This document shows, in pieces, positions 2,501 through 40,859 of a stretch of DNA of 64,000 nucleotides. The DNA comes from a phage. The stretch is from the sequence record PZ534534.1. The stretch is one strand, 5' to 3'. Each line of letters opens with the position of its first letter. Position 1 is the first letter of the stretch. The translations under genes were made by a program, and so were the position numbers. The notes beneath the pieces were generated by a model. The model searched no databases. It worked only from the letters and a program-made list of their open reading frames with translations, and was not told the DNA's origin.

Positions 2501-2501
2501 T

Positions 2502-2576
2502 GGCCCTGTAGCTGGAAGGTTCAAGCAAGCGACTCATAATCGCCAGACGGTGGTTCAATTCCACCCAGGGCCACCA
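2502..2576 (+). tRNA. tRNA with CAT anticodon (Met, fMet or Ile-lysidine)
   Basis: Acceptor GGCCCTG/CAGGGCC, anticodon loop CTCATAA, T-arm GGTGG-TTCAATT-CCACC, CCA encoded. Confidence 0.8.
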
Positions 2577-2587
2577 AATAATAAATA

Positions 2588-2664
2588 CTCCGCGTAGCTC
2601 AGCTTGGTAGAGCGCCTGATTTGGGATCAGGAGGTCGAGTGTTCGAATCACTCCGTGGAGACCA
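2588..2664 (+). tRNA. tRNA-Pro (anticodon TGG)
   Basis: Acceptor CTCCGCG/CGTGGAG, D-arm TAGCTCAGCTTGGTAGAGC, anticodon stem CCTGA/TCAGG, loop TTTGGGA, T-loop TTCGAAT, CCA encoded. Confidence 0.85.
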
Positions 2665-2710
2665 CTTTCAGTTATACTTTAAACATATACAAACAAAAGG
2701 AACCTTTAAA

Positions 2711-2980
2711 ATGTATACACTTAAAATTGTAGAGCGTGTAAATCCAACCCATACTGTAGATTTTCGTGACGATTTCAATCCTCTGGCTGTAAATCTTCGA
2801 GAGTCATATCATGAACTCAGCTGCGATGCAGTGGTGGTCTTTTTTGAAGACAACTCTGAAGGGGCAGTAGCTTGTGTTGTTGATAGTGAGCAGAAGTTTT
2901 ATATTTACAGAGATGTAGATGCATACTTGATGAATGAAAATGCAGTTACTGTTAGAATCATCCACCGAGTGCCTCGATAA
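2711..2980 (+). CDS. hypothetical protein
   Basis: ORF track 2621..2980 overlaps tRNA-Pro; internal ATG at 2711 with AAAGGA RBS taken as start. Confidence 0.45.
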   Translation: MYTLKIVERVNPTHTVDFRDDFNPLAVNLRESYHELSCDAVVVFFEDNSEGAVACVVDSEQKFYIYRDVDAYLMNENAVTVRIIHRVPR

Positions 2981-3032
2981 GTATTAGTCTCCTTTTAGTT
3001 AGTTTCGATCTATTTAGGTTACTCAATTTTAA

Positions 3033-3067
3033 CCCGCCCCGTTAGCTGCATAGCTGCGGGGTTTTTT
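3033..3067 (+). terminator. rho-independent terminator
   Basis: GC-rich hairpin (CCCGCCCC...GCGGGG) followed by TTTTTT. Confidence 0.55.
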
Positions 3068-3085
3068 CGTTTCTGGAGCCTTAAA

Positions 3086-3484
3086 ATGATTTCAGTTTTA
3101 ACATGGCTGAGTAGGTATAAAGGGATCATAAAAGGTTTAGTTTTTGCAGCTGCGATAGGTACAGCTTATCTTGGGGCCGTGTATTGGTTTAACTCCAAGC
3201 TTAATGATGCCTACCAGGAGGGTGTGTCAGCAACAGAGTTAAAGTGGGAACGGATCCTTGATCAGCAACAAAAGCAGGCCGACAAGATTAAAATGGGCCA
3301 CGCAGAGGAGGTTAAAAACCTTGAAAAATCTCTTTCTGATCTGCAGGATAAATTAAATATAGCTGAGAGGGCAGGTAAAGAAAAGCAGATTATTTACCTC
3401 CAATCACCTGAGGGTAAGAAGTCAACACTCCCTGATCAGCTTATAGATATTTATAATGAGAGTATTAATCAGGAGGGTCGATGA
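3086..3484 (+). CDS. inner-membrane spanin (i-spanin, Rz-like)
   Basis: N-terminal TM helix (GLVFAAAIGTAYLGAVYWF) followed by charged coiled-coil region; overlaps the lipoprotein gene by 4 nt. Confidence 0.65.
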   Translation: MISVLTWLSRYKGIIKGLVFAAAIGTAYLGAVYWFNSKLNDAYQEGVSATELKWERILDQQQKQADKIKMGHAEEVKNLEKSLSDLQDKLNIAERAGKEKQIIYLQSPEGKKSTLPDQLIDIYNESINQEGR

Positions 3485-3768
3485 GAGTTGCTGCACTGTT
3501 TATTGTGTGCTTGTTATTATGTGGGTGTGCAACCAGCGTTGAGAGAGAATACAAGATTGACCCTCCTGATGTAGGAAGGTTGATTGTTAAACCCCCGGAA
3601 GGTGCCATGAAACCACCTGCTAAAGCTATGCCTTTGAAGAAAGGTGCGCCAGATGCAGTGAATTCTGGCATTATGAGGGATAATAATCTGTCTTGTAGCA
3701 ATGATAGAGCTAAATTGATCATTTTGCAAGACTATATTAGAACACTGTTTCCAAAGGAGAGAGGTTAA
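3481..3768 (+). CDS. outer-membrane lipoprotein spanin (o-spanin, Rz1-like)
   Basis: Signal peptide with lipobox-like LLLCGC, Pro-rich 95-aa product; classic spanin gene pair arrangement. Confidence 0.65.
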   Translation: MRVAALFIVCLLLCGCATSVEREYKIDPPDVGRLIVKPPEGAMKPPAKAMPLKKGAPDAVNSGIMRDNNLSCSNDRAKLIILQDYIRTLFPKERG

Positions 3769-4193
3769 TGTCTAAGATTTACGGACCGTGTTCTGAAAAG
3801 CAGAAGATGATCCTTGAAAACGATGCAGATATTTTGGTAATCGGCGGTGCCGCAGGGTCTGGCAAGTCGTTCCTCTTGCAATTGATGCCACTTAAAATTA
3901 TTGATGACCCCCACAGCTCTGTGGTTATGTTCCGAAGAACAACCCCACAGTTGGAAGGTGAGGGTGGACTATGGCCTAAAGCAGTAGCTATTTATAGTGA
4001 TCTGCCTGAAAACATTAAGCCAAAGTTCAGAGAGAAGGATCATAAGTTCATTTTTCCACGGTTTGATCCGAACACCGGCAAGTGGGATAGAAGCAAAAAG
4101 GGAGCTGTTGTAAAATACTGCCACATGGAGTATGTACAAGATAAGCTTAACCATCAAGGGCTTGAGTATACCATGGTTTGCTTCGATGAGGGT
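3768..4193 (+). CDS. terL: terminase large subunit, exon 1 (ATPase Walker A GGAAGSGKS, Walker B MVCFDE)
   Basis: Walker A/B motifs typical of terminase ATPase domain; ORF ends with in-frame stop immediately after the predicted 5' splice site (GAGGGT|TAATT). Confidence 0.8.
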
Positions 4194-5076
4194 TAATTTG
4201 TAGCTCTCGTAAAACCTCCCTAATTGCGGGGAAATCTTTATTATTGACACCACCAACCTGTCATGGTAACATGATAGAGGCTTCGAAGAGAGATCGAAGG
4301 TATGGTAACAGTGTGTTAATTTAGATAATCCGCAGCGAAGCATCCGAGAGGATGAACGTTCAACGACTAGTCGAAAGACGTAGAATCAAGCGATTCGAAA
4401 CGGGAGGGTGAATGTGTAATACTAAAAAATGTATGGATTGCCAAAGAGTTCTACCTATTGATGATTTCTTTTTATCATCTAAGAGCAAGGATGGATACTC
4501 AGGTACATGCAAGGAATGCTATATGTACTACAGGAAGGGTGGATCTCGTAAAAACAAAAATATGGTTAAGAGAGATGACGCAGCATTGTTTATTCAAGAC
4601 TTGCTGAAGAAAGGTGAACTTTTTGAATGCAAATCTTGTCATGAAAGTATGCTCGCTGATAGTTTTTACACAAAACGTGACTATGGTAAAGTATATCTGG
4701 TTACGAACAGGTGTAAGATGTGTGAAAAGTTTTATCAGATTGAGAAGAAATTTCACATAACAAAAGATGAATACTATCGTCTACTCTCAGATCAAGATCA
4801 TAAGTGTGCCATTTGTAGAATATCCCTTGATGAGTATAGGACGCAAGGGTATAGAGATTTCTTTTGTGTTGATCATGACCATAAAACTGGTGCTGTAAGA
4901 GGGTTGCTTTGTGATAAATGCAACAGAGCTTTAGGTTTCTTCCAAGAGGATGAGGAAACTATTCTTAGAGCGGCAGAGTATTTACACATTCATAAGATAT
5001 AGTCTGGTCTGCATGGAGACATGCAGCTGCCTGAAAATGGCGGGGCAAGACTAGCGACCTTGCCCGAACATAAACG
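4194..5076 (+). mobile_element. group I intron 1 (td-like) in terminase gene, carrying an HNH endonuclease ORF
   Basis: Begins TAATTT after exon-terminal U; 3' core CTGCATGGAGACATGCAGCTG...GGCGGGGCAAGACTAGCGACCTTGCCCGAACATAAACG closely parallels the T4 td intron core as recalled from memory; exon reading frames are restored across it. Confidence 0.7.
4412..5002 (+). CDS. intron-encoded homing endonuclease, endonuclease VII-like HNH zinc-finger type
   Basis: Motif CAIC...VDHDHKTGAVRGLLCDKCNRALG matches the recombination endonuclease VII / HNH pattern; several CxxC pairs; own RBS GGGAGGG. Confidence 0.8.
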   Translation: MCNTKKCMDCQRVLPIDDFFLSSKSKDGYSGTCKECYMYYRKGGSRKNKNMVKRDDAALFIQDLLKKGELFECKSCHESMLADSFYTKRDYGKVYLVTNRCKMCEKFYQIEKKFHITKDEYYRLLSDQDHKCAICRISLDEYRTQGYRDFFCVDHDHKTGAVRGLLCDKCNRALGFFQEDEETILRAAEYLHIHKI

Positions 5077-5393
5077 ACACAATTCGAATGGGAGCAGATA
5101 GACTATCTGATGTCTCGTCTGCGATCTCAGTCAAAGTATCCATCAAGAATGGTTATCAGCTGTAACCCCGATTCAGAACACATGCTTGCCAAACTGGTTA
5201 GATGGTGGTTGGACGATGAAGGGTATCCAGATCCGGAGAAATGCGGTAAGAAAAGATATTTTATCCGACGCGACGGTGAATTTATCTGGGGAGACTCTAA
5301 AGAAGAGTTGATAGAGAAATACACCACGGTTAACGGACTGGGTGTTGAGATCAAGCCAAGACCGTTGTCATTCTCGTTTATAGGCGCAACCAT
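5077..5393 (+). CDS. terL: terminase large subunit, exon 2
   Basis: In-frame continuation (TQFEWEQIDYLMSRL...SFSFIGATI) with no RBS at the internal ATG (5110); boundaries inferred from frame conservation and td-like intron ends. Confidence 0.65.
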
Positions 5394-6372
5394 TAAATGA
5401 TAGTGGCTTCGTGCAGAAATGCACGTCGAATAACTTCGTTAATTGCTGGGAAATCCGATTGCTAAACGGACAATCAGCAGCTATAATTACCCTTCCGAAC
5501 CTGTAGTAGGGAGATGTTTGAAATGAAAAATTTAGGCTTTTTAGGCTACAATCATTATTGTGCTACATACGATGGCAGAATTTACAGTCTGTATTCTAAT
5601 AAATTCCTCCATCCTAATGTGCAGAAAAAGACTGGCTATGCTATGGTAACTTTGTGCGAGGACGGTAAAAAGTTCCAAGTGCTCGTTCACAGAGTGATTG
5701 CTATGACTTTTGTTGATAATGACAATCCCAGCGTGAAAACTCAAGTAAACCACCTAGATGGTAATAAGTTGAATAACGCCGCATGGAACCTTGAGTGGAC
5801 AACGCCTGAGGAAAACACACATCACGCTCATGAAATGGGACTTAAAAAGGACTATGTCAATAAATACAGGTCCCTGGATGATGCCACTGCTCTTGAAATA
5901 TGTAGGCTGTTAGAACAAGGCGCAAGGGTAAAAGACATTTGTGAAATGTTCGGTGTCAATCAACCACTTGTAAGTGGTATAAAGAATGGCTCAGTATACC
6001 CAGATATTTCTAAAGAGTTTAACTTTAGAAAAGTGCCAACCTCTAATCGGATAAGTGAGCACAAGATAATAGGTATCTGCGAGGATCTTAGTGATAAGGT
6101 CTTGTGTGTCAATAAAATAGCTAAGAAGTGGGGAGTAAGTTTTAGTGTTGTTAAAGGAATAAAAGACCGTAAGACTTACACCTATATTTCAAACAATTAC
6201 GATTGGTAATGTAGTTCAACGACTATCCCGAGAGGGAGTAGGGCGCAAGCTTATGGCGCTCGAAAAGCGAAGCACCCTGAAATGGGTGGTGATATAGTCT
6301 ACTCTGCATGGTAACATGCAGCAGCACGTAAAGGTGCGGAAGGTGGTGTTGCGACCACCTTTGAATATAAGG
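5394..6372 (+). mobile_element. group I intron 2 (td-like) in terminase gene, carrying an HNH endonuclease ORF
   Basis: 3' core ACGACTATCCC...GGGAGTAGGG...GATATAGTCTACTCTGCATGGTAACATGCAGCAG plus P9-like hairpin AAGGTGGTgttgcgACCACCTT; the exon-3 frame opens only 2 nt before the predicted 3' splice site. Confidence 0.7.
5514..6209 (+). CDS. intron-encoded HNH homing endonuclease with C-terminal HTH
   Basis: Motifs VHRVIAMTFV...VNHLDGNKLNN...NLEWTTPEEN are the canonical HNH endonuclease signature seen in phage homing endonucleases. Confidence 0.85.
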   Translation: MFEMKNLGFLGYNHYCATYDGRIYSLYSNKFLHPNVQKKTGYAMVTLCEDGKKFQVLVHRVIAMTFVDNDNPSVKTQVNHLDGNKLNNAAWNLEWTTPEENTHHAHEMGLKKDYVNKYRSLDDATALEICRLLEQGARVKDICEMFGVNQPLVSGIKNGSVYPDISKEFNFRKVPTSNRISEHKIIGICEDLSDKVLCVNKIAKKWGVSFSVVKGIKDRKTYTYISNNYDW

Positions 6373-7177
6373 ATTCGATAATCCTGTCTGCCTGAGAGAT
6401 AACCCAGAATACCTTGCTTTCCTTGAAGGTCTACCAGAGCTGGAAAAAGCTCAGCTTCTCCATGGTAACTGGTTTGCAAAGCCTGAGGGTGCAAACTATT
6501 TTCAAAGATCTTTCCTTCGTGATGCCGATAGAGTACCTCTTGGGTCAGTATCTTGCAGGGCATGGGATAAGGCAGGAACCGAGAGAACTTCCGGTAATAA
6601 ATTTCCTGACTTTACTGCCAGTATTAAGGTAAGTAAAGATAGCGACGGCTTTTATTACCTGTCCGGTGATTATTGTCCTGAGAACGTGGATGACGGGAGG
6701 TATTCCACAGGTCTGGAAGGCAAGTTCTGTAAAAAGGCTGGTGAACGAGATGTGATCATCAGGAAACAGGCGCAGTTCGATGGTGATGATTGCATAATCG
6801 TCTTCTCTGTGGACCCAGGGCAGGCAGGTAAGAGTGAGTTCTTAACCTCCTCCAGATCCTTGCTTGCCGAAGGGTTCAGGGTTGAAGAAGACCCAATGCC
6901 TTCCAACAAGTCTAAACTGACAAGGTTCTCACCTTTTGCCAATCTTGCCCAACAAGGAATGGTGAGGATTGTAAAATCCAGTTTCCATCCTGATACTCTG
7001 GAAGCATTTCTGACTGAACTTGAAAAATTCAACGGGGAAAGATCAACATTTAACAGAAAAGACGACTGGGCCGACTGCGTAGCTTCTGCGATTAATTTCC
7101 TGGAGAAAGAGGAGGTAGCACTTCCTTGTGTGATTCCATCAATCTCATCACCTTCTATGTTCAAGCGTTTTATCTAA
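6373..7177 (+). CDS. terL: terminase large subunit, exon 3 (nuclease domain)
   Basis: DNPEYLAFLEG...LHGNWF... motif block typical of the terminase C-terminal nuclease domain; frame matches exons 1+2 for a total of about 515 aa. Confidence 0.75.
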
Positions 7178-7180
7178 GTG

Positions 7181-7209
7181 TTGCCAATCTTAATTAGATG
7201 TGGTACAAT
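7181..7209 (+). promoter_or_regulatory. sigma70-like promoter (TTGCCA-17-TACAAT)
   Basis: Hexamers with 17-nt spacer upstream of the portal gene. Confidence 0.5.
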
Positions 7210-7277
7210 AAAGTAATTGGAGATACTAGCCCTCTGACGAGGGCTATTTTGTTATACTGTTTTGAGGGGTAAAGCTT

Positions 7278-23882: not shown

Positions 23883-24551
23883 ATGGCTGTAGCTTATCCT
23901 ACAATACCAATTCCAGATCTTGAAGATGCAGAAACAGTCCTGAGTGATGACTTCTTGGTTGTCAACCAGACTGATGGGACAAGAAAGGCTAAGATTGACG
24001 ATGTTGTCAACGATCTTAGCATCACTAAGATAGTCTATTTCACAGAGGGTGGTTATCTTAAGAGCAAGAAGGACTTTGCTTATGATCCAGAAACTAAGCG
24101 CTACTACACGTGGAACGGGGATTATCCTAAAATAATCCTCCCAGACTCCACTGTAGAGGGTGCTGGGGGTGTGTCTGCAAATGCCTGGTCTGTTTTTGGT
24201 GAGCTTGCTGCAACTTCTTCTGGCAGAATAGTTGATTACGGATCTATCGGTGGTCAGCTTGATATGGATCTTGAAGTTGCGGATACCTTTAAGGTTCGAC
24301 TAACTTCAAATACCACAATCTCTTTTGAAAATCAAACAGAAGGTCTTGAAGGGGTGGCGAGGACTATAACCGTATGCATTACTCAGACCTCTGGCGGCAA
24401 CAAAGTCTATTGGCCTGGTAATGTTAAATGGTCCTACGGAAGAGATCCTATCCTAACATTTACAGCTGGTGCAACAGATATTTTCAAGTTGGAAACCTAC
24501 GACAACGGGTTAACTTGGTACGGGGCACTGATTATCGCAGGAGCTATCTAA
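23883..24551 (+). CDS. receptor-binding protein with conserved N-terminal particle-anchor domain
   Basis: N-terminal 100 aa share a recognisable pattern with the N-terminus of the 27186 fibre (F.EGG.L....DFAY.......Y.W.G..P...P). Confidence 0.5.
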   Translation: MAVAYPTIPIPDLEDAETVLSDDFLVVNQTDGTRKAKIDDVVNDLSITKIVYFTEGGYLKSKKDFAYDPETKRYYTWNGDYPKIILPDSTVEGAGGVSANAWSVFGELAATSSGRIVDYGSIGGQLDMDLEVADTFKVRLTSNTTISFENQTEGLEGVARTITVCITQTSGGNKVYWPGNVKWSYGRDPILTFTAGATDIFKLETYDNGLTWYGALIIAGAI

Positions 24552-27154: not shown

Positions 27155-27175
27155 GGGGGCTGTTTGCCCCCTTTC
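27155..27175 (+). terminator. rho-independent terminator
   Basis: Hairpin GGGGGCtgtttGCCCCC followed by TTT. Confidence 0.55.
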
Positions 27176-27185
27176 AGGAGAAAGA

Positions 27186-30100
27186 ATGGCTGATATTAAA
27201 GTTGTCAGAATTGAATCTCTTCCTGCCACTACCGCAGTGACAGAGGATGATTACCTGGTTGTTCAACAACCAGACCTGACTCGTCGTGTAAAAATTGGCG
27301 ATGTTGTCCATGTGGATGGGACTGTTTCTCATGTAATCTCCTTTAAGGAAGGTGGTAAGTTAAACGGCCCAATGGATTTTGCCTACTTCGAAGAGGAAGA
27401 CCTCTACCTGCGTTGGAAAGGCGAATTTCCACACACTGTTCCTGCACTGTCTTCACCGTACGCTGATGGTGGGATTACTGACGCTGCATGGATGGTATAT
27501 ACTGACCCGTCCCTAAGGGAGGAGCTGGAATCTACCATTGGCGCATCTATGATCATGACAGCCGAAGGGCAGTCTGTCCAGGATGTAATGGATGTTACTG
27601 TTCAGACAGCTAACGATGCTAAAGCACTTGCACAGCGTGTAGATTTTGGTACAGTGCACACTGTAGGCGATGTTATTCACCTTGATAACTTTGTTGGCCC
27701 TGCAGTTATTGAAGAGGGAAGAACTACCAACTACCCTTCTGTAGCAGCTGGTGAAAAATTTCTGAACGGTGTGGTATCTCGTCGTGATACTACAACTGTT
27801 GATGGTATTTTCCGTGGCGCTACCACCGGAGCTATGTACACCATTGCAGTAACCAACGGTGTAGCAACAACAAAAAGAATAGCACTTCGTGATGAATTTA
27901 AACGCCTAGAGACAAATAACCCAACAAGAACAGTTATCCGTGCTGGAGATGATTTAAATACGGCAGGGTACTTGCAGCTTGATGCAACAGGCCGTTGGGG
28001 TATGTGGAACCAACAAACAGCTTCGTGGCAACCTCTTGCTATAGAGCAAGGCGGCACAGGGGCTAGAGATGCCGCTGGAGTCCGTATCAATATCGGTGCT
28101 TTCTATAAGCAGCGTGCTGCGCTTGATGCAAATTTCAATATCAATAATTTGACTGGTAATCAGGATGGTATATACTACCAGCCGATGACTGCTAATGCAA
28201 CTGAGGCAAATGGTTACCCTGCAGGTTCTGGTGCTGGTCACTTGATTGTTTGGCAGAACAATGCTAACGGCGGTACAGGGTGTCGTCAGGAATACTATCC
28301 ATTCTCTAACGTAGATGTTTGGTATTTGAGAACCTATCAGGCCAACACAAATCAGTGGACTGCATGGCAGCCGATGGTCAGACCTCGTAACGATGATACC
28401 TTCAGATCTCATATTGGCCTTGGTAAAAACAACTCGCCAGCCTTCGGGCACCTTTACTTAGCTCAATACTCGGGAGATGTTAAATCGGCCTCAGGTATTC
28501 TCCATGGAGATAAATATAATACTGACGGTGTCCTTGAGCATGGATATAGGATCTATTCTGAGGTAAGAAACGACAATAAGGCTTGGTTGACAATCCACCT
28601 GCACAAAGGTGCAAAAGGATCTGAAACTCATAGATATTTAGGTTTACGCGAAGACGGCGTGTTAGACTGCCCTAAATACATGCAGGTTGGGGATCTTACT
28701 GGTCAGCTGACAAACTGGGGACTTGGAGAGTGGATTCGTAGTTCAGGAGCAGAAAGAGGCTTCTGGGGGTCCAAGAAAGCCGCCAAGATGGTCGTCTGGG
28801 ATGGTGGGATGGATGAGTCCGGTAACGGCACTCTGGAATGGGGTGTTTATAACAACCGGAAGGCCAAGTGGGAACCTTTATCTCACGCCGCAGGTGGCAC
28901 TGGGGCTACAACCCTGGCAGATGCTCAGAATCTGTTCAAAGTTCCTATAGCTGCGGGTGTCAAAGATTTCTTAACACTGCCAAGAACTGCAGGGATGGAA
29001 GATGGGAAATACTACCCAATCATCGTTAGAACAGATCCGTACTATGCTCCAGCAACTGGTACTGATATTACCATAGTTACCAGATCGTCATCCGGCAGTG
29101 ACCCTATGAACTGCGCTACTCTGCAGTGCCATTACAGAACTGGGGGCTGGACAGACAGAGGAGACTCTTTCTACGGGGTAGTAAATTTCTACCAGAATGA
29201 AAAAGCACTTCTTGGGATGGTTGCTCCAACAAGGGGTAAACAAGAGTATGTTGCTTTCTATGTAGAGGCTCGTGCTTTCCCTGTCAGCGTATACGCAAGT
29301 AGAAATGTTGTAGAAGTGTTTACCAGAGAGCAAGATTACCAGGTCGGAGCTGTAACAGACAATCAGGACGGTGTTAAGTTTGTTGCGCCTCTCCAGTCAG
29401 CAGATTTGAATCTTGCTGTTCTTGGAGATAACAATACCAACACCAGACCTATTGTTGACTTCAAAGGTACCTCTGGGTTCTACACTGGCGGCGGCACACA
29501 GTGGCACTATATAGGCACTGCTGAACGCTATGCGGTGATGAGCAAAATGAACATGCCTAAAGTCGAACTATGGGCTGACGGTATTGACTATTTGTGCTAT
29601 GGCAGCCCTAGAAAGGCGTTATTCTCTAATGCAGGATTCCAGTGTGCATCAGATGGAACAGAGGATCTAACTAACGGTACGTTTACCTCTAAATGCGGTA
29701 ATGGTGCTGGCCTCAAAGGTCAGGCAGAGTTCAGATCTACCCCAGAAGCTGGTCAAGTTATTGTTCGCGATGTTGTGGGCACAGCTCACAGATTCTACAA
29801 TTTCAACAAAGACGGTACTTTCTCGGCCCCTGGTGGTTTTGTATGTCATACTGGTGGAGACTGGAACAACCAGTTTGGGTCTAATAACCCGTCAAAAATA
29901 ATGGCGGGTAATGTTAACGGACCAGAAGGCTCGATGGTTGTTGGTGGACTGTCTGTGGCGTTCTCTGGAAACTATGCTTTCCAAATGGCTGGACGCCTTG
30001 ATCAGTTATACACCAGATCTATCGAGGGTGGTAACCATAGAGCGTGGAACAAGGTCATACAACACAGAGGGCAAGGTCTGGGGATTAATGACCTTAACGA

Positions 30101-30986
30101 CTACAAAGGGGATAGGGAAGGTTTTTATCATCAGGAGGCCAATGCTCAAGCCACACCTGATAGAAACTACCCATGCTCCCGGGCAGGTACGCTTATCGTG
30201 TACAGGAACTACGCCAATGTTCCAGAGAGTTGCGTACAGGAGTATATATCATATCTTGGGGAAAAATTCCTGCGTTATGGAACAACAATAGGTAGTGTTT
30301 TCACATGGGGACCTTGGCAGCAGCTTGGTGGTAAGGGAATTACTCTTAAAACCGCAGGTTCCAATCTTGACCCAGAGTTCATGATACATACAGGTGGTGG
30401 GACCGATGTTACCAACACTTCCAACATGCCTTCTAATACAGGCAGAATGTACTACTGGGGTAATGGCGCAGACAGGAAGAACGTGCTTGAGTTTCAGATA
30501 AACGACAACGCTACATCTGCCAGTTGGGTATGGCATTGTGGTGCTAAGACAGATGAGGCCAAGTCAAGGTACTTTGCTGTCAACGGCGTAGTAGAGTGCA
30601 CCGCTGTCAGCCAGAGCTCTGACCGTGACCTGAAGGATAACATAGAGGTTATTCCTAACGCGTTGGAAGCTATCCGTAAGATGAAAGGCTATACCTACAC
30701 TCTAAAAGAGAATGGTATGCCTCACGCGGGGGTAATTGCTCAAGAGGTTATGGAAGCATTGCCTGAAGCGGTTGGTTCTTTCGTGAAAAGGAAAGAGGTT
30801 CCTGGTCCTACTCAAGATGGTATTCCTCTGATGACCGAGGAAAGATTCTATAATGTTGACTATGCGGCTGTAACAGGATTGCTTGTTCAGGTTTGCAGAG
30901 AACAAGATGATAAAATAACCGCCCTTGAGGAGCAGGTTAAAAAATTGACAGAGGTTGTTACTGGGTTGCAAGAGAAACTGAAGTAA
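27186..30986 (+). CDS. long tail fibre with C-terminal intramolecular chaperone (peptidase S74) domain
   Basis: C-terminal block SDRDLKDNIEV...GYTYTLK...GVIAQEV is the hallmark of the self-cleaving chaperone domain of endosialidases and T5 L-shaped fibres; N-terminal anchor domain shared with the 23883 protein. Confidence 0.8.
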   Translation: MADIKVVRIESLPATTAVTEDDYLVVQQPDLTRRVKIGDVVHVDGTVSHVISFKEGGKLNGPMDFAYFEEEDLYLRWKGEFPHTVPALSSPYADGGITDAAWMVYTDPSLREELESTIGASMIMTAEGQSVQDVMDVTVQTANDAKALAQRVDFGTVHTVGDVIHLDNFVGPAVIEEGRTTNYPSVAAGEKFLNGVVSRRDTTTVDGIFRGATTGAMYTIAVTNGVATTKRIALRDEFKRLETNNPTRTVIRAGDDLNTAGYLQLDATGRWGMWNQQTASWQPLAIEQGGTGARDAAGVRINIGAFYKQRAALDANFNINNLTGNQDGIYYQPMTANATEANGYPAGSGAGHLIVWQNNANGGTGCRQEYYPFSNVDVWYLRTYQANTNQWTAWQPMVRPRNDDTFRSHIGLGKNNSPAFGHLYLAQYSGDVKSASGILHGDKYNTDGVLEHGYRIYSEVRNDNKAWLTIHLHKGAKGSETHRYLGLREDGVLDCPKYMQVGDLTGQLTNWGLGEWIRSSGAERGFWGSKKAAKMVVWDGGMDESGNGTLEWGVYNNRKAKWEPLSHAAGGTGATTLADAQNLFKVPIAAGVKDFLTLPRTAGMEDGKYYPIIVRTDPYYAPATGTDITIVTRSSSGSDPMNCATLQCHYRTGGWTDRGDSFYGVVNFYQNEKALLGMVAPTRGKQEYVAFYVEARAFPVSVYASRNVVEVFTREQDYQVGAVTDNQDGVKFVAPLQSADLNLAVLGDNNTNTRPIVDFKGTSGFYTGGGTQWHYIGTAERYAVMSKMNMPKVELWADGIDYLCYGSPRKALFSNAGFQCASDGTEDLTNGTFTSKCGNGAGLKGQAEFRSTPEAGQVIVRDVVGTAHRFYNFNKDGTFSAPGGFVCHTGGDWNNQFGSNNPSKIMAGNVNGPEGSMVVGGLSVAFSGNYAFQMAGRLDQLYTRSIEGGNHRAWNKVIQHRGQGLGINDLNDYKGDREGFYHQEANAQATPDRNYPCSRAGTLIVYRNYANVPESCVQEYISYLGEKFLRYGTTIGSVFTWGPWQQLGGKGITLKTAGSNLDPEFMIHTGGGTDVTNTSNMPSNTGRMYYWGNGADRKNVLEFQINDNATSASWVWHCGAKTDEAKSRYFAVNGVVECTAVSQSSDRDLKDNIEVIPNALEAIRKMKGYTYTLKENGMPHAGVIAQEVMEALPEAVGSFVKRKEVPGPTQDGIPLMTEERFYNVDYAAVTGLLVQVCREQDDKITALEEQVKKLTEVVTGLQEKLK

Positions 30987-30993
30987 CTGTTTT

Positions 30994-31019
30994 GCCCTCG
31001 CTTCGGCGGGGGCTTTTTG
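30994..31019 (+). terminator. rho-independent terminator (CGCTTCGGCG family)
   Basis: Hairpin CCCTCGCttcgGCGGGGG with UUCG-type loop followed by CTTTTTGTTTG. Confidence 0.65.
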
Positions 31020-31025
31020 TTTGTA

Positions 31026-31054
31026 TTGCGTATTAACTTAAAATCTGGTAAAAT
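31026..31054 (+). promoter_or_regulatory. sigma70-like promoter (TTGCGT-17-TAAAAT, TGGTAAAATA family)
   Basis: -10 TAAAAT preceded by TGG; -35 weaker. Confidence 0.4.
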
Positions 31055-31085: not shown

Positions 31086-31676
31086 ATGTTTTTATGGGAA
31101 AGGCCTAGATATCTTCCAGATATTAGATTGGAGCTGCTGGCAGATATTGTTACGTTTAAAAGTCCATTTACAGGTAAAACGCAAAAAGTAACCTATGCCA
31201 CACCTAACTGGAAAGGCACTTTGACGGTCTCCAATATCAGCGAGTCACAGTTGCTAGAGCTTAAGAGCTTTGTTGATCAGGTGTATAAAGATGGAAACAT
31301 CTTTCTTATTAAAACTTACGGTCACTCAGTAACAACTAATGAGCCAATCGCCCTTGGGCCTACTGGTAACGACGATTTTTTGAAGACGGTCGGATGGGAG
31401 CCAAACAGAGACATAGCTAGAGCTGGGGATAAAATATCTGTCAATGATGAATTGAAAGTGGTAACAGCTCCAGTGCGTAGTGATGGTGTTGGGTCTGCTG
31501 TTATAGGCATATCTCCAAGACTTAGAAAGCCTATTGCCGCAGGGGACACCATGAAGATAATAACTCAATCTCCGAAGGGTAGGTTTCATATCAGAGATAT
31601 TTATAAAATTAAGCAAAAAGTCGATGCTATGCAAAAAGGTGATAATATAGTTATCAACTTCTTTGAGGATTTCTAA
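31086..31676 (+). CDS. minor tail protein (tail-tip complex, first gene of J-type module)
   Basis: 196 aa, first of three small genes preceding the J-like gene. Confidence 0.45.
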   Translation: MFLWERPRYLPDIRLELLADIVTFKSPFTGKTQKVTYATPNWKGTLTVSNISESQLLELKSFVDQVYKDGNIFLIKTYGHSVTTNEPIALGPTGNDDFLKTVGWEPNRDIARAGDKISVNDELKVVTAPVRSDGVGSAVIGISPRLRKPIAAGDTMKIITQSPKGRFHIRDIYKIKQKVDAMQKGDNIVINFFEDF

Positions 31677-31677
31677 G

Positions 31678-32229
31678 ATGATCAGAGCGCCATTAGATAA
31701 TTTATTTCTTGAAAAGCTGGAGCTTGATGGTGTTGAGATCTTAATTGCTGCAAAGCTGGAGCTACCGACAGGAACTGTCAGGGTGTGCTCAGGCACTGGT
31801 GTTGTAGTAATTGAGGGGCAACATTTTATAGGGATAGGTGGATCAGCAACGTTAACTGCTGTGTCTGAGAAAGATGCCACCAACTTCGGATCTGTGGTAG
31901 CGACATTGAACGGGTTTGATCCTAAGTATGTGGGTGATCTGCTGAAGACGGAGTATTCTGGTTGTCGTGCCACGTTGTACATTACCGCTATGGAGAATGG
32001 TCTGCCTGTTACAACTAATGGCTTGTTTGACGGCCTTATAACAGATATGGCTATTCAGACAGGCGAGAATAGTGCTTTGTCCATATCCATCTCCTCCATC
32101 TTCAACAGCTGGTTAAGAGGTTTTCCTTATCGGTACACGGAGGAAAGCCACAGCTCAAGAAACGATAACGACAGATTTTTTAAATATGTGGATCAGGTGG
32201 CGAGCCGCCCGATCATTTGGGAGGTTTAA
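31678..32229 (+). CDS. minor tail protein (lambda L-like position)
   Basis: ATG at 31678 with GAGGAT RBS (ORF-track TTG start at 31663). Confidence 0.45.
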   Translation: MIRAPLDNLFLEKLELDGVEILIAAKLELPTGTVRVCSGTGVVVIEGQHFIGIGGSATLTAVSEKDATNFGSVVATLNGFDPKYVGDLLKTEYSGCRATLYITAMENGLPVTTNGLFDGLITDMAIQTGENSALSISISSIFNSWLRGFPYRYTEESHSSRNDNDRFFKYVDQVASRPIIWEV

Positions 32230-32654
32230 TGAGCACACATCCTCGTTTAGTGGATTGGCAAGAAAGATTGTGGAAAGTGTTTGACGAAGAGGCCACCATA
32301 CCTTTTGAATGGGGATTCCACGATTGTTGCACCTTTGCGGCTAAGTGTGTTGATGCCCAATACGGAACAGATTTTCTTTCTAACTTTGAAGGAACGTATA
32401 AAACAGAGTTGGAAAGCAAAAGATGGTGCATGCTTCGTTTCAAAACCACACACCTGCCTACTATTTTTGATCTCTTTATGACTCGGCTGGATACTCCTAA
32501 ACAGGCTCAGCGTGGAGATATTGTCATTTTCGAAGGTCTGAACGGGCTCACCGCTGGTGTGTTCTGGAACAACCAGATTTGGGCTAAAGGTGATAAAGGG
32601 GTCTTTATGTTCGACATGAAAGATTCTATCGTTGTTGATGTCTGGAGGTATTAA
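32229..32654 (+). CDS. minor tail protein, putative NlpC/P60-like (lambda K-like position)
   Basis: ATG at 32229 with GGGAGG RBS; conserved Cys/His (FHDCCTFAAKC) consistent with a papain-like peptidase domain. Confidence 0.45.
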   Translation: MSTHPRLVDWQERLWKVFDEEATIPFEWGFHDCCTFAAKCVDAQYGTDFLSNFEGTYKTELESKRWCMLRFKTTHLPTIFDLFMTRLDTPKQAQRGDIVIFEGLNGLTAGVFWNNQIWAKGDKGVFMFDMKDSIVVDVWRY

Positions 32655-35600
32655 TGCCAATTGCAATGATTGATAACATCGTTGCTTCTGCAAGATCTTC
32701 AAGTTATGACTGGAACGCATCCAAGGCAGCTCTGGCTGACAGCCTGAACACTGTTACCACCAGAACTCTGGATAAGATTTTCGAGGGAAACAAATCTTAC
32801 AGAAGTCAGCAAGATAGACAAAAGCTTCTCAGATCTTCTGCTGCACCTTGCTCTGTAGTGTATGGGAAGACACGTACATCTGGATTGCTTGCGTTTTTGG
32901 AGCAGGACAGGGACAGAACCCTTCATTGTGCTATTGTTCTTGCCAATCACCCTCTGGAAGGTATAGAAGATATACTTATCGACGGTAATCCTATTTCTTC
33001 GTATGGGGATTTGGTATCGTGGGAGCTACATAACGATAGAAAAACCTCTGATCCTTTCATGGGCACACACTGCCCATCGTGGTCACCGGACATGATAGGT
33101 AGAGGGATCAGTTGGCTACGGGTCAGCTTTAGGTTTGACCCTAACAAGTTTCCTTTTGGGTTGCCAAACGTCACACTCGTCAAGGTTGGTAAAAAATGCT
33201 ATGATCCTCGCACTAGTAAAGAGGTGTATACCAATAACGCTGCCTTGGTGATTCTGGACTATTTAAGAACGTACCTTAAATGTCCTGACGAAACCATCAA
33301 CTGGGAGTCCTTCAAGGAGGCTGCCAACATATGCGACGAGGCTGTAAGAAACGCAGACGGAACCAGCGAGCGTCGTTACACAATTAATGGCGAGTTCGAT
33401 ATGGATGAGGCCCCAGCAAGTATTATGGCAGAAATGCTGAAAGCTTGTGGCGCAGATCTCAGCTATGTAGCTGGTAAGTATGGTTTGCTGGTTGGTGCAT
33501 ACTATGGCCCGGCAACAATGACACTGAGTGAGGATTGTGTCTGTGGTGAGGTCAAGATCTACCCGGAAGCCTCATTTGACAAAAGATCCAACACAATAAC
33601 CGGCAGATTCACTAGTCCGACCAAAGGGTATTCTGAAACAGATTTTCCATCAGTGTTTGTCCCAGAGTGGATAGAGAAGGATGGAGAAAGAAAGATAATC
33701 GATATAGACTATCGCTTTGTTACCAGCCCTTATCAAGCTCAGCGTGTTTCTGCAATCTTCTTAAGACGCGCGAGAGCTGGCAGGATTATTGAAGTCACCT
33801 GCAATATGCGAGGTTTTAAATTTAAACCTGGTCGTTACGTTACAATGAACCTTCCAAGTATAGGTATAGTGGGCCAAGAAATGAGGGTTCTTGAATGGGA
33901 GTTTACCAAAAAGGGTGGTGTCAAGGTAAAACTTCGTCAAGATGCTAAAGAGTGGAATGATGCCACAGGGCAACTTCCGGATTCTGGCAATGTAGATATT
34001 CCGATATCTCCATCTGGTGTAGCTCAACCGCAAAACTTCAGATACTCCGTTCTCCAAGCTGGGGAAGTAACTCACGGTGTTTTGGCTTGGGACAACGTTG
34101 GGACTTACGCTCAAAATATTGTGCAGGTAAGAAAGAACGGAGAGATTGTTTGGACAGCACAGACAGTTGAGCAGTTTGTCAGAGTAGAAGGTTTGACCAA
34201 AGGGTCATACACAGCAACCGTGGTTGCAACATCTTATAAAGGTGGTGTATCTCCAGAAGCGTATTGTGAGTTTAACATTCAGGCACCTGAAGCTCCGGTT
34301 TCTGTAGAGGTTAAGCAAGGATACTTTGCTATCACCTTGATTCCGCATAGTAGGGATTTAGCAAGTGTTAGCACCCAGTATGACTTTTGGACATCCGGTA
34401 TGACAAGGTTGCCAGACACCAGTGATGCAACCGTTACTTCAAACGCCACCCGTATGGGTGTTGGTTCAACTTGGACATCTGAAGGTCTGCAGAACGATAA
34501 GGTTTATTATTGGTATATTCGAACCACAAACGCTTTTGGTAGTTCTCAGTTTGTAGAATGCGCTGCACGCTGCTACACCTCTATTGAGGATTTGATGCCT
34601 CAGATAGATGCTGAATTCAAAAAGACAGAAACTTATAAAGAGTTGATGAGCACTTTGGATTCCTCTATTGAAGAGGTTGAAAATCGTGTCACAGAACTTA
34701 ACAGGTACATGGATGGTAGGGTAGATGAAGCGTTCCAGCAACTTGGGGACAGAATAGGTGCGGTAGTTACAGAAACAACTCAGAAGTTTGAAGATGTCAA
34801 TGGTAACATTACAGCGCTGGATAGGAAACTTGTTGCTGCACAGAACAAATTCACCAACGATCTGAACACTGAAAGTGGCAGACTGGCATCTCTAATCGAG
34901 ACAACCAATAAAGCAACTACTGATCTTCTGAACAAAAAGACAGAGGCTTTAGATGAGAAATTGGTTGCCGCCAAAGGTGAGCTGGTAGAGCAGATAGGGG
35001 GAGTTGAGAGCGGGTATTTAGCCGGAGATAAAACTCTGGATGGTAAGATCAATACTCAGAGAACAGAACTTGACGCAAGCATCTTGAGCACTAACCAAGC
35101 CACTGTAGATCTTTTGAACAGGACATCTGAAACTCTGGATCAAAAGATTAGTCAGACAAACGCGACGGTATCTAAAAACTATACCACCCTTGACGGCAAG
35201 ATAACTACCGCAAAAACTGACCTCAACACCTTGATTGCCAATACCAACAAGGCCACCACTGACTTGTTGAATCAGAAAACATCTGCACTGTCAGAGCAAA
35301 TAACTTCTGCACGTGGGGAGATCTCTACCAACAAGCAAGCGATTGATGCTTTGGATGGAAAACTGACCTCCACAAAAACAGCGCTGGATGCTACAATTTC
35401 CGATACCAACAAAGCCACTGTGGACCTTATCAACGGCACAGCGTCAGCTATTCGTCAAGAACTTGCTGTCGCTAAGCAGGAGATCATCAATGATGTTGGG
35501 GATGTATCTGAGCTTAGGGCTGCAGTAGCTACAACATCTAAGGCTGTAACCGACTTAGAGGGTAAAGTAAATGCTCAATGGGGCACAAAAATACAGGTAG

Positions 35601-36493
35601 ACTCCGCAGGGAATAAATATGTTGCAGGTATCCAGTTGGGGATGGAAGGGTCTGGGGGCCAAGTTCAATCCTACTTCATGGTTAGTGCAAACAACTTTGC
35701 GGTATACAACCCCGGAAATGGAACAGCAACCCTTGCTTTCGCAATCAAGAACAACCAAGCGTTCTTGAAAGACGCTTTTATAGAGAATGGCACGATCTCT
35801 TCTGCCAAGATCGCACAAGAAATTTCGTCAAACAACTACGATGGCAACGGGTACCATAAATACGGTTGGTATATTAACAAGAACGGGCACGCCCAATTTA
35901 TGGATGTATGGGTGAAAGGCAACATCAACGCCAGTTCTGGTAACTTCACAGGGGCAGTTAACGCCACCAGTGGTACCTTCCGTGGGGATGTTTATGCCAA
36001 TAACGGTAGCTTTAGGGGCACCATAGATGCAACCGGAGGTACCTTCCGTGGGCGTGTAGAGGCTTCTGTTATTCGTGCTAACCAGTTCGAAGGTGCAATA
36101 GTTGCACACAAGACCTACGGTGACTGTCCTCCAGTATACAACTCTCAGCAGCAGGTTTGCCGTTGGAGATGGAGATACGTGGATAACGTTCAAGGACAAG
36201 GTAAGAACGTAACATTCTTCTTTAAGCTTAACGGAACTCTAGGAGGCTCCCAGTTGAATGTGTGGATAGCGGGGCACCAGTTGCTCGCTGGCAAGAAGTA
36301 TGGTAACGACAACGATGGTATGTGTGCAGTCGGGATAACAGGGCTGGGTGAACAGACCATAGACATTATTGTTGAAATTTACACACGCTGGTCCACCTCA
36401 GCTATAACAGGTGTTACAATATCCTGTCCTACTGTGATAGTAAGTCGTTCAAACTCTAGCTTCCAGGGACCTTGGAACGAGTCTCACGACTAA
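32654..36493 (+). CDS. host specificity / central tail fibre protein (lambda J-like)
   Basis: 1279 aa; blocks GYFAITLIPH, YYWYIRTTNAFGSSQFVE and WGTKIQVDSAGNKYVAGIQLGMEG...SANNFAVYNP match lambda J blocks recalled from memory; long heptad-like repeat region. Confidence 0.8.
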   Translation: MPIAMIDNIVASARSSSYDWNASKAALADSLNTVTTRTLDKIFEGNKSYRSQQDRQKLLRSSAAPCSVVYGKTRTSGLLAFLEQDRDRTLHCAIVLANHPLEGIEDILIDGNPISSYGDLVSWELHNDRKTSDPFMGTHCPSWSPDMIGRGISWLRVSFRFDPNKFPFGLPNVTLVKVGKKCYDPRTSKEVYTNNAALVILDYLRTYLKCPDETINWESFKEAANICDEAVRNADGTSERRYTINGEFDMDEAPASIMAEMLKACGADLSYVAGKYGLLVGAYYGPATMTLSEDCVCGEVKIYPEASFDKRSNTITGRFTSPTKGYSETDFPSVFVPEWIEKDGERKIIDIDYRFVTSPYQAQRVSAIFLRRARAGRIIEVTCNMRGFKFKPGRYVTMNLPSIGIVGQEMRVLEWEFTKKGGVKVKLRQDAKEWNDATGQLPDSGNVDIPISPSGVAQPQNFRYSVLQAGEVTHGVLAWDNVGTYAQNIVQVRKNGEIVWTAQTVEQFVRVEGLTKGSYTATVVATSYKGGVSPEAYCEFNIQAPEAPVSVEVKQGYFAITLIPHSRDLASVSTQYDFWTSGMTRLPDTSDATVTSNATRMGVGSTWTSEGLQNDKVYYWYIRTTNAFGSSQFVECAARCYTSIEDLMPQIDAEFKKTETYKELMSTLDSSIEEVENRVTELNRYMDGRVDEAFQQLGDRIGAVVTETTQKFEDVNGNITALDRKLVAAQNKFTNDLNTESGRLASLIETTNKATTDLLNKKTEALDEKLVAAKGELVEQIGGVESGYLAGDKTLDGKINTQRTELDASILSTNQATVDLLNRTSETLDQKISQTNATVSKNYTTLDGKITTAKTDLNTLIANTNKATTDLLNQKTSALSEQITSARGEISTNKQAIDALDGKLTSTKTALDATISDTNKATVDLINGTASAIRQELAVAKQEIINDVGDVSELRAAVATTSKAVTDLEGKVNAQWGTKIQVDSAGNKYVAGIQLGMEGSGGQVQSYFMVSANNFAVYNPGNGTATLAFAIKNNQAFLKDAFIENGTISSAKIAQEISSNNYDGNGYHKYGWYINKNGHAQFMDVWVKGNINASSGNFTGAVNATSGTFRGDVYANNGSFRGTIDATGGTFRGRVEASVIRANQFEGAIVAHKTYGDCPPVYNSQQQVCRWRWRYVDNVQGQGKNVTFFFKLNGTLGGSQLNVWIAGHQLLAGKKYGNDNDGMCAVGITGLGEQTIDIIVEIYTRWSTSAITGVTISCPTVIVSRSNSSFQGPWNESHD

Positions 36494-38100: not shown

Positions 38101-38787
38101 ATGGCAGAGATTAAGTCGGATGTTAACCACATCCACACTCTGCCAGATTTTGTTCAGGGAGGTCTTGACTACCTGCCTGGAGATTTTCTGGCTGAGAAGG
38201 TTAATTTAGTCACATTCTTAACCGTATACCTTAAAAGGTTGGAGGATGTTGATAAGATGCTGGTAGGTTTGGCTGAAGGAAGATTGCTTAACAATGCCAG
38301 CGGAAGATACCTTGACGAAGTTGGTAATCAACTTGGTATTCTTAGGAATGGACTTTCAGATGCTGATTTTCGTGCCACACTAATTATTCAGCAGGCCGCA
38401 GCATCAAGGGGCGGGACTCGCGAAGATGTCATCTCCACCTTGCGACAATTGTTCGGAAGAGACAATTTCGATACGTGGAAAGGAGACAACTTCAGGTTTG
38501 ACATAAATATTAGAAAAACTTGCTTTGACATATTGCAGTCTATCGATCAGATCTTAGATATGCTACCATTACCTTGTCATTTGCGTCTTACAGAATCGCA
38601 AGGGCAAGCTTTTGGTTTTGAAGGGGACTCTACAGCTCTTGGCTTCGGATCAGTGTGGGAAGAAAACCAATTCGGAGTTGGTGGGCTGGCTACTTTGCTG
38701 TATGTTCCTGACGTAAGACCTGATTGGGACACCACAACCATTTATTGTGAAAGTATTACAGTAAACGCAACTAGACAGGAGGGTTAA
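38101..38787 (+). CDS. baseplate wedge protein (P2 gpI / Mu gp48-like, putative)
   Basis: 228 aa immediately after baseplate J-like gene, conserved gene order. Confidence 0.45.
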   Translation: MAEIKSDVNHIHTLPDFVQGGLDYLPGDFLAEKVNLVTFLTVYLKRLEDVDKMLVGLAEGRLLNNASGRYLDEVGNQLGILRNGLSDADFRATLIIQQAAASRGGTREDVISTLRQLFGRDNFDTWKGDNFRFDINIRKTCFDILQSIDQILDMLPLPCHLRLTESQGQAFGFEGDSTALGFGSVWEENQFGVGGLATLLYVPDVRPDWDTTTIYCESITVNATRQEG

Positions 38788-40859
38788 TGGCAACAGCTAT
38801 TTTTAAACCTTACCGTGATTACTCTACAATGGCTGCACGGTTTCATTACCGCACAGTTCAGGATACTGCCGTTCCTGGTAGGGATTATAATCATGTTGAG
38901 GGTGATGTAACTATCCCAATTGGGGCAACCAGTATTGAGATCCCAGTGGAAATTGTTGACAAATTACCCAACAGGTTGCCAAGAAGCTTCTTTATGGAGT
39001 TTTCATCAAAATCTCAAGGGGTGATGATTGGAACACAAAGGGCGAAATGTACAATAGTTTCAGATGAGAATCTTGACAGGATATCTTGGGATACTGTTGA
39101 GGAGAGAATGTTTCACCCAAGGTATTGGGTTACAACTACTCAGCAGACTGAAAGTACCTGTATTGTTGCAGATAACAACTGTTGTATTAACCGTTTAGTG
39201 TCAAGAACATATGGAGGTATGGCTGGGTGCATTTGGGAAACAGTTGACAAGTATGACCATTTCGGTATTGGGTTTGATGATCACTATGAGATGAGAAACA
39301 CCAAGCTTTGGTTCAGAATGTCAATAACCAATGCCAGCAACTTCTCCACCCCTGAAAAGATGATTATGACTGTAGACCTTGTTGATGGCACAATCATCTA
39401 TGTTCCTTTAGCTCAATATGCTGTCAGCATCTCAGAGGATAAGAATGTTGCAGAGATTCATATTGATTTCGAGGACTGCGTCGGGATGGATCAGAACAAC
39501 AACATGATGGGTGTTGATCCTCGACAGGTGAGAAGGATTTTAATACCGCTTATGCCTAAAGACTGGGTAAGTAATAGCACAGACCCGAGAACGGAAAATG
39601 TAGAGTGTGAGTTGCGCCTAGATCTGCTCCAGCCAGACACAGGCTGGAAAATGATGCAACTTAACAATATTCAGGTTAAAGAGCACGACGTTGGGATCTG
39701 CACCGCATATGACGATATGTGGAACGTATCTCCTTTAAGGGTGTTGAACAATATCAAGCGTCTGGGCTATACCGGAACCATAAACCATTATGTTGGTATG
39801 AGTCATTATTATGACTACACATGGTCAGGAACCCAATGGTCTATAAACAGAACAGGGGCGCTAAACGCTGCAGCTTATAAATGGCATGATGATTTTATGT
39901 ACAATGCCAAACGACATAACTTCGACGTTATGCAATCTGTAAGTTTTGAGCTTTTCAGCGATGCCTGCCCGTTGGAATGGACCCAAAGAGACTGGAACGA
40001 TAACTACGCTAAAACAGGGTATACACCCTGTAGCTACCTCCTGTCTCCAACCATTGAAGAGGGTATGAATTTCCTTACTGCAGTATTTAAGAATTTTGCA
40101 TCAGCCGCTATGAGAAACAACCTGCCAGTGATTATGCAGGTTGGTGAACCGTGGTGGTGGTACAATACCGATACTCGTAGACCTTGTATTTATGATTACC
40201 CTACAAAGCAGGCGTTTTATGATGAGACAGGTGAGTATGCATTAGATATTGGGACTATTGACGATCCTAAAACTGGCGGTGTTTACGACAAGTATGTAGC
40301 ATTTTGTCGTGGTAAGCTTGGCGCTCGTATTGCGGCCATTTCAAAGGCAATAAAGGCACACGCTGCATCAGCTCAGATGACAGCTCTGCTGTTTTTCCCA
40401 ACCATTATGGAAACAGAGCTTACGCAAAAGCTGAACCTTGCTGACCAATATAAAAAAGAAGCAGGTGCTCTTGATTTCTTCTGCACCGAGTGCTACGATT
40501 GGGTGATGCAGGGAGGTATTGAAAAGGCAAAAGAGTCTGTAAACATACCTATCGTTAAGTTAGGTTGGCAACCGTCTGAAATACAATACCTTGCAGGGTT
40601 CGTTCCTAGTAAAGAGCTTGCTCCGGTATATGGCTACGACCCAACCAGGAATTACCAAGAATTTTTATGGAGATGTATCTGCGGAAACATGGCAACCATA
40701 GAGTATAGATACCCTGAGGTAAAACAGTATGTGTGGGCATACCCGCAAGTAATGTCTGACAGCATCACTGTTACAGCCAGAGATTCTACCGTGCTTCATA
40801 TGGGGCAGGTTGCTCTGAAAGGGTATGTAGAAGATGTTGTCCCTCCAGACTTCTCATAA
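38787..40859 (+). CDS. tail fibre/spike protein with N-terminal Calx-beta-like domain and putative glycosidase-like C-terminal domain
   Basis: N-terminal pattern DYNHVEGDVTIPIGATSIEIPVEIVDKLPN resembles Calx-beta; Trp-rich C-terminal region (QVGEPWWWYNTD). Confidence 0.4.
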   Translation: MATAIFKPYRDYSTMAARFHYRTVQDTAVPGRDYNHVEGDVTIPIGATSIEIPVEIVDKLPNRLPRSFFMEFSSKSQGVMIGTQRAKCTIVSDENLDRISWDTVEERMFHPRYWVTTTQQTESTCIVADNNCCINRLVSRTYGGMAGCIWETVDKYDHFGIGFDDHYEMRNTKLWFRMSITNASNFSTPEKMIMTVDLVDGTIIYVPLAQYAVSISEDKNVAEIHIDFEDCVGMDQNNNMMGVDPRQVRRILIPLMPKDWVSNSTDPRTENVECELRLDLLQPDTGWKMMQLNNIQVKEHDVGICTAYDDMWNVSPLRVLNNIKRLGYTGTINHYVGMSHYYDYTWSGTQWSINRTGALNAAAYKWHDDFMYNAKRHNFDVMQSVSFELFSDACPLEWTQRDWNDNYAKTGYTPCSYLLSPTIEEGMNFLTAVFKNFASAAMRNNLPVIMQVGEPWWWYNTDTRRPCIYDYPTKQAFYDETGEYALDIGTIDDPKTGGVYDKYVAFCRGKLGARIAAISKAIKAHAASAQMTALLFFPTIMETELTQKLNLADQYKKEAGALDFFCTECYDWVMQGGIEKAKESVNIPIVKLGWQPSEIQYLAGFVPSKELAPVYGYDPTRNYQEFLWRCICGNMATIEYRYPEVKQYVWAYPQVMSDSITVTARDSTVLHMGQVALKGYVEDVVPPDFS

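Follow-up and report, generated by a model that had tools for sequence, protein, structure and literature searches.

The gene at positions 27186-30986 (+ strand) of phage sequence record PZ534534.1, analysed here as a 64-kb stretch of DNA (the window), encodes a lateral tail fibre that ends in a peptidase S74 domain. It begins with ATG, comprises 1266 codons plus a stop and is the sole long open reading frame (ORF) in its interval; the ORF map confirms the fibre frame of 1266 amino acids (aa) put forward in an initial annotation of the DNA. A DNA search with the gene matched 123 phage records (79 spanning at least 80% of it), nearly all of them Vequintavirus, the rV5-like myoviruses of Escherichia coli. 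More than 20 genomes carry the gene at 100% coverage and 91-96% nucleotide (nt) identity, the best match being phage FV3 (95.6% over 100% of the gene), and the 24 kb around it are approximately 97% identical to several Vequintavirus genomes. The protein is 82-97% identical to nine orthologues and matches phrog_6578, 'tail fiber protein', with E = 0. The rV5 orthologue is gp41 (ABI79112), with 1272 aa; others are FV3_00041, Murica gp40, bas58_0027 and bas54_0027, the last two of which are annotated in BASEL as 'lateral tail fiber protein'. In Bas58 and Bas54, an 865-aa glycosidase-type fibre gene is followed by the fibre gene, a Dit-like gene, a baseplate protein, DUF6950 and a 1279-aa J-like gene, and the same order surrounds the fibre gene in the window. 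Full-length similarity and conserved gene order place the protein in the rV5 gp41-type lateral fibre group; judged by its sequence, the window is from a Vequintavirus whose fibre gene is orthologous to rV5 gp41. At 84-97% aa identity, it shares with rV5 gp41 and the other Vequintavirus orthologues named above its gene position, a Tail_spike_N N-terminus, an S74 C-terminus and flanking hairpins, and differs from them only allelically, with the differences concentrated in aa 960-1140. The gene and its parts are:

27186-30986, + strand: lateral (long) tail fibre gene, 1266 aa, orthologue of rV5 gp41, Bas58_0027 and Bas54_0027
27321-27494, + strand: Tail_spike_N domain, aa 46-103 (Pfam PF18668, E 7.5e-10)
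28137-28376, + strand: first copy of a repeated knob-like domain, aa 318-397 (self-comparison)
30090-30326, + strand: second copy of the knob-like domain, aa 969-1047 (self-comparison)
30246-30425, + strand: hypervariable distal tip, aa 1021-1080 (allele comparison)
30438-30617, + strand: pre-cleavage beta-structure segment, approximately aa 1085-1144, ending at Ser1144, the predicted new C-terminus
30618-30983, + strand: Peptidase S74 intramolecular chaperone domain, aa 1145-1266, with Ser1145 as predicted nucleophile and Lys1150 as predicted base

The C-terminal S74 domain

The S74 signature assigned by the initial annotation to the last 122 residues, from 30618, lies exactly there: SDRDLKDNIE starts at residue 1145 (nt 30618), GYTYTLK occupies 1168-1174 and GVIAQEV 1182-1188. 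Pfam places PF13884, Peptidase_S74 ('chaperone of endosialidase'), at residues 1145-1196 with E 1.5e-16 and 60.8 bits (gathering cutoff, 22 bits), covering profile positions 1-57 of 58. The domain opens with SDRDLK, in which Ser1145 and Lys1150 supply the S74 catalytic pair at a spacing of five residues. All nine S74-bearing Vequintavirus alleles examined keep Ser, Asp and Lys, and these residues show no variation in alignments of 68 and 109 homologues at greater distance, most of them tail fibres of E. coli prophages, that reach down to approximately 38% identity over a 310-aa query; among the matches listed, 120 of 120 homologues carry PF13884. A six-frame scan of the 64 kb for S-[DN]-x-x-[LIVMF]-K-x-[DN]-[IVL] returned this one site only, and no second S74 domain was found by this signature in the fibre locus.

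The domain is located as expected for the family, in the last 122 of the 1266 aa and directly after a predicted intertwined beta-structure, the trimeric state being presumed. Residues 1125-1266 were modelled with AlphaFold2 (110-row alignment, mean pLDDT 80) as two short helices followed by a small hairpin, a long beta-hairpin (1196-1224) and a C-terminal helix of 40 residues (1226-1265); the model thus displays in predicted form the small alpha/beta part, the long beta-hairpin 'tentacle' and the C-terminal coiled-coil helix of the S74 fold. The Pfam match, the Ser/Lys pair and the predicted fold support the earlier interpretation of this region as a peptidase S74 intramolecular chaperone.

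Four solved structures provide points of comparison. K1F endoNF (3GW6), the founding member of peptidase family S74, has a chaperone with approximately 14% sequence identity to that of the fibre in structural alignment, and the catalytic pair Ser911/Lys916. The L-shaped fibre pb1 of T5 (4UW8) likewise ends in an S74 domain with Ser and Lys five apart and a cut just before the Ser, as predicted for the fibre; the two chaperones are alike in fold (mixed alpha/beta part, long beta-hairpin, C-terminal helix), and in T5 the receptor-binding tip lies immediately upstream. The catalytic pair of pb1 is Ser1264/Lys1269 (PMC4690869). No homology of the fibre to the pb1 shaft or bullet-shaped receptor-binding domain was found. 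The closest solved relative by sequence is S16 gp37 (6F45), which can be aligned with the fibre over the motif SSDR-x-IK-x-DI and over the T4 gp34-like beta segment before it, and the ICA domain of MyRF (7DC3), a eukaryotic membrane-bound transcription factor, has the same fold and belongs to the same family. Searches of PDB sequences by phmmer with the full protein and with its last 166 aa retrieved only S16 gp37 (E 1e-4) and MyRF (E 0.004) and neither K1F nor T5, and a 69-sequence profile likewise fell short of both; the proposed link of the chaperone to K1F and T5 comes from Pfam and from comparison of the modelled fold.

The presence of an S74 domain on this fibre gene is already known. 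The rV5 genome paper (PMC3606486, 2013) lists gp41 with PF13884 and matches its C-terminal domain to the K1F endosialidase 3GW6 by HHpred. The domain call therefore has little weight as a discovery, being textbook and published for the orthologue.

Two observations concern database records of the gene. Eighteen unannotated GenBank records titled 'Campylobacter phage' (MG0656xx records, host given as C. jejuni) carry the fibre gene at approximately 90% nt identity; their genomes are similar in size to rV5, and they are probably mislabelled or contaminating coliphages. A search of 5.8 billion proteins with a query from 30054-30983 gave best matches that were 66-67% identical, and the FV3 and Bas58 orthologues, at 97% identity, were not among its results; apparently, near-identical phage proteins are either not indexed in this set or were lost to the word filter.

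Fibre body and variable distal end

The Tail_spike_N region is probably the attachment or adaptor part of the fibre. Matches of the N-terminus among PDB sequences are to the N-terminal parts of tail spikes and fibres (9OCC, 9LNA, 9D84, 4QNL and CBA120 TSP4, 5W6H). Approximately residues 1-300 are nearly invariant in the ten orthologues compared, which would fit an anchoring role. Tail_spike_N (PF18668) is also N-terminal in a 222-aa protein encoded two genes upstream (23883-24551), and its occurrence in both proteins suggests that the two dock in the same way within a branched assembly of fibres.

Tiled self-comparison identified two internal repeats in the fibre, while plain self-BLAST gave the identity match only. 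The two knob-like copies (318-397 and 969-1047) are 34% identical (E 2e-10), and a collar motif at 268-331 pairs with 549-610. The R2 pyocin fibre 6CT8 weakly matches aa 978-1048 in the second knob, and the NCBI name for some homologues is 'pyocin knob domain-containing S74 family peptidase'. The segment at approximately 1085-1144 is predicted as beta strands (pLDDT 75-86), and in a 69-homologue profile it matches the C-terminal beta-structure of T4 gp34 (5NXH, 4UXE; E ~1e-8) and S16 gp37 (6F45).

Across the 1266 aa, Pfam reported Tail_spike_N and Peptidase_S74 only, NCBIfam matched nothing, and no sialidase, glycosidase, beta-helix lyase or other enzymatic domain was found by either. The fibre could still be taken for an endosialidase or another capsule-degrading tailspike, given that record V18 labels a homologue 'endo-N-acetylneuraminidase' and that phi92 gp143, a positional analogue, is an endosialidase. 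However, the 'endosialidase' label derives from the Pfam name 'chaperone of endosialidase'. K1F endoNF is a tailspike with a sialidase beta-propeller, whereas the body of the fibre is built of repeated knob and collar modules typical of fibres, and its DNA similarity to T5-like and other phages is limited to the chaperone segment. We regard an enzymatic tailspike as extremely improbable.

Identity to the window allele is 90-100% over most of the protein, the chaperone (1141-1266) included, but falls to 20-56% between allele classes in residues 1021-1080 and is lowered from approximately 960 to 1140. Residues 1021-1080 are, from this sequence variation, probably the receptor-contacting region. 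The most C-terminal peptide reported from rV5 virions (aa 1058-1073) lies inside this hypervariable tip, and the tip region is therefore present in virions. The allele classes split from approximately aa 960-996, where a swappable distal cassette starts at the second knob. The window allele groups with those of FV3 and 241Ecol014PP, both 100% identical to it over aa 961-1110, while rV5 and Bas54 are 23-66% identical to it over the same residues. A conserved anchor, a hypervariable tip and a conserved chaperone together form the pattern expected of a receptor-binding fibre whose distal specificity is uncovered by chaperone release.

DNA searches showed layered mosaic boundaries within the last 813 nt of the gene. 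The chaperone-coding part alone is common to T5-like, Dhillonvirus-like and lambdoid side-fibre genes, at 67-74% DNA identity, and approximately one third of the Vequintavirus records match only nt 1-2988 of the fibre gene. In phage LL12, the two relevant genes are, in coordinates of the LL12 sequence examined:

2501-6940: LL12 fibre gene
6940-7272: 110-aa ORF

The LL12 allele encodes a 1479-aa protein lacking S74, with a different C-terminus of 483 aa after approximately aa 996 that matches phrog_1419. This C-terminus has a sub-threshold Pfam match to Laminin_G_3, a ConA-like lectin family (E 0.0085, 16.7 bits against a cutoff of 27.6). The additional 110-aa ORF (phrog_1361, unknown function) follows the LL12 fibre gene and precedes the same invariant terminator. 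That LL12 gp41 lacks the pfam13884 domain present at residues 1151-1200 of rV5 gp41 was reported in 2020 (PMC7229145).

Flanking signals and the downstream module

Three signals flank the fibre gene:

27155-27171, + strand: G+C-rich hairpin GGGGGC-TGTTT-GCCCCC, then TTT, between the upstream fibre gene and the fibre gene (read from the sequence)
27176-27181, + strand: ribosome-binding site (RBS) AGGAGA, upstream of the fibre gene
30994-31013, + strand: intrinsic-terminator-like hairpin and T run, 8 nt after the stop codon (consensus scan)

The upstream hairpin is essentially invariant in nine phages, with one extra G in Bas58, and its equivalent in Murica is annotated as a terminator; the consensus scan missed it because its T run is short. 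The stem of the downstream hairpin comprises 8 pairs (7 G-C), and TTTTTGTTTG comes after it. Nine related phages have an identical hairpin, among them LL12, where the gene end differs, and its counterpart is also annotated as a terminator in Murica. The initial annotation's claim that the fibre is terminated separately, at 30994, from a downstream 'J module' agrees with these findings. Between this terminator and the Dit-like gene lies an invariant promoter-like sequence (31026-31054: TTGCGT, 17 nt, TAAAAT, with TG two bases before the -10), which was read by eye and not called by the consensus scan.

The J module itself is real. The gene at 31086 encodes a 196-aa Dit-like distal tail protein (phrog_1302, no Pfam match), the gene at 32217 is DUF6950, the module also holds a tail protein of phrog_2048, and 32654-36493 encodes a 1279-aa J-like protein; the name is a fair description because this last protein contains Phage_Tail_Tip and two J Ig-like (Ig_J) domains. 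The module (31086-36493) is thus a lambda-like distal-tail module located inside a myovirus. In Bas54, transposon insertions in the orthologous Dit-like and J-like genes are tolerated on K-12 (bioRxiv 10.1101/2025.11.20.689424), so that these genes behave like those of accessory fibres and not like those of a central tip. Farther downstream, the 690-aa product of 38787-40859 combines non-contractile tail sheath protein domains (NCTSP_N and a TIM barrel, E 4e-80) with a Calx-beta domain; the BASEL annotation of this protein is lateral tail fibre, with domains for a glycosidase and a deacetylase.

The neighbouring genes bear on the possibility that the chaperone is cleaved but the mature tip is then capped by a separate small adhesin, as in the gp37/gp38 pairs of T2 or S16. 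S16 gp37 carries gp38 after processing, and the authors of RBPseg raised such a cap speculatively for the Bas54 fibre (PMC12143355). However, the same study's cryo-electron microscopy (cryo-EM) map of that fibre shows no adhesin density, and the Vequintavirus fibre has no gp38-like gene associated with it: past the conserved terminator, the next gene is already part of the J module. As a gp38-like adhesin, the 196-aa product of this gene was rejected, since it is Dit-like. The strongest allelic variation is, moreover, inside the fibre itself, at aa 1021-1080, as expected of a receptor-contacting tip. We consider a capping adhesin quite unlikely.

Probable maturation of the fibre and possible exchange of its distal end

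Taken as a whole, the gene very probably encodes a long lateral fibre with a self-removing S74 chaperone. By analogy with the K1F and T5 systems, from which we infer the chaperone role and the cleavage, the fibre would first be made as a precursor with a computed mass of 138.6 kDa. Its C-terminal 122 residues would trimerise via the terminal helix and serve as a template on which the intertwined distal beta-structure immediately before them folds. After correct trimer formation, Ser1145, activated by Lys1150, would cut the Ser1144-Ser1145 bond in each chain; the fragment of 122 aa (13.63 kDa) would leave, and the mature chain of 1144 aa (125.0 kDa) would stay in the virion. Release of the chaperone would uncover the distal tip, which varies most at aa 1021-1080 and the ligand of which is probably a surface glycan that differs between strains, while the N-terminal 300 residues, including Tail_spike_N, would anchor the fibre to the baseplate fibre network. 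In T5, it is the Thr1263-Ser1264 bond that is cut, and the Ser departs with the chaperone; the same has been noted for K1F, and the phi29 appendage has been modelled with the Ser retained (PMC4690869).

Data on orthologues are consistent with loss of the domain. The rV5 virion proteome includes eight gp41 peptides, covering residues 434-1073, with none in 1151-1272. Vequintavirinae fibres that end in an S74 domain are described in the RBPseg paper (PMC12143355, 2025), whose cryo-EM map of an S74-bearing Bas54 fibre lacks density for the peptidase domain.

Several points weigh against a self-removing chaperone. Autoproteolysis of the fibre is deduced from family membership and from these indirect orthologue data. 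Six of the 51 detectable rV5 tryptic peptides fall in the domain, so that the chance of missing all of them with eight peptides is approximately 0.37, and their absence is not significant. The fibre 'RBP_11' of the RBPseg study is equated with bas54_0027 by inference, because the fibre gene has the only S74 signature in the fibre locus. In a transposon study, bas54_0027 was dispensable on E. coli K-12, and lateral fibre genes were conditionally essential on clinical isolates (bioRxiv 10.1101/2025.11.20.689424). Monomer AlphaFold2 models cannot display a trimer-dependent active site. In T5, Arg1250 and Asp1239 from the neighbouring chain form an oxyanion hole or 'folding sensor', and an upstream Arg/Asp pair of this type was not identified in the fibre; Arg1128 is nearly invariant upstream of the chaperone, with no equivalence to T5 Arg1250 established. 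Finally, a larger 310-residue model was modest (pLDDT 66.6), and its top Foldseek match, 3GW6, was weak (E 0.016, TM 0.21-0.24). This last search is without significance because the multi-domain monomer model is poor, and fold comparison with the chaperone modelled alone overcame the weak match.

Alternatively, the S74 domain might be kept in the virion, uncleaved or cleaved but bound, as a permanent distal cap or trimerisation foot; in favour of this, an uncleaved T5 mutant still folds (PMC4690869). The catalytic Ser and Lys are intact and invariant, however, the Bas54 fibre lacks density for the domain, none of the eight rV5 peptides is from it (with the above limit of P ~0.37), and retention of the chaperone in T5 abolishes receptor competition (PMC4690869). 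Retention in the virion is very improbable, and release of the chaperone from the lateral fibre is the reading we prefer.

For fibre expression and engineering, as in host-range swaps and receptor-binding assays, the C-terminal 122 residues should be kept for folding, and such constructs should be expected to yield a mature 125-kDa chain with Ser1144 as its last residue. The place to look for specificity determinants is aa 960-1140, and above all 1021-1080, shortly before the predicted cleavage site. The mildly novel point is a putative alternation of the distal cassette between a form with a chaperone in cis and a form with a lectin-like head and an extra small ORF. Tentatively, and with the odds against it, the distal end could be a two-state exchangeable cassette, either an S74 cis-chaperone tip or an LL12-type lectin-like head accompanied by the 110-aa ORF, possibly a trans-acting chaperone; the cassette may extend from the second knob domain (approximately aa 996) to the invariant terminator. 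If this is true, a single fibre scaffold would alternate, along with its receptor specificity, between intramolecular and intermolecular help in folding.

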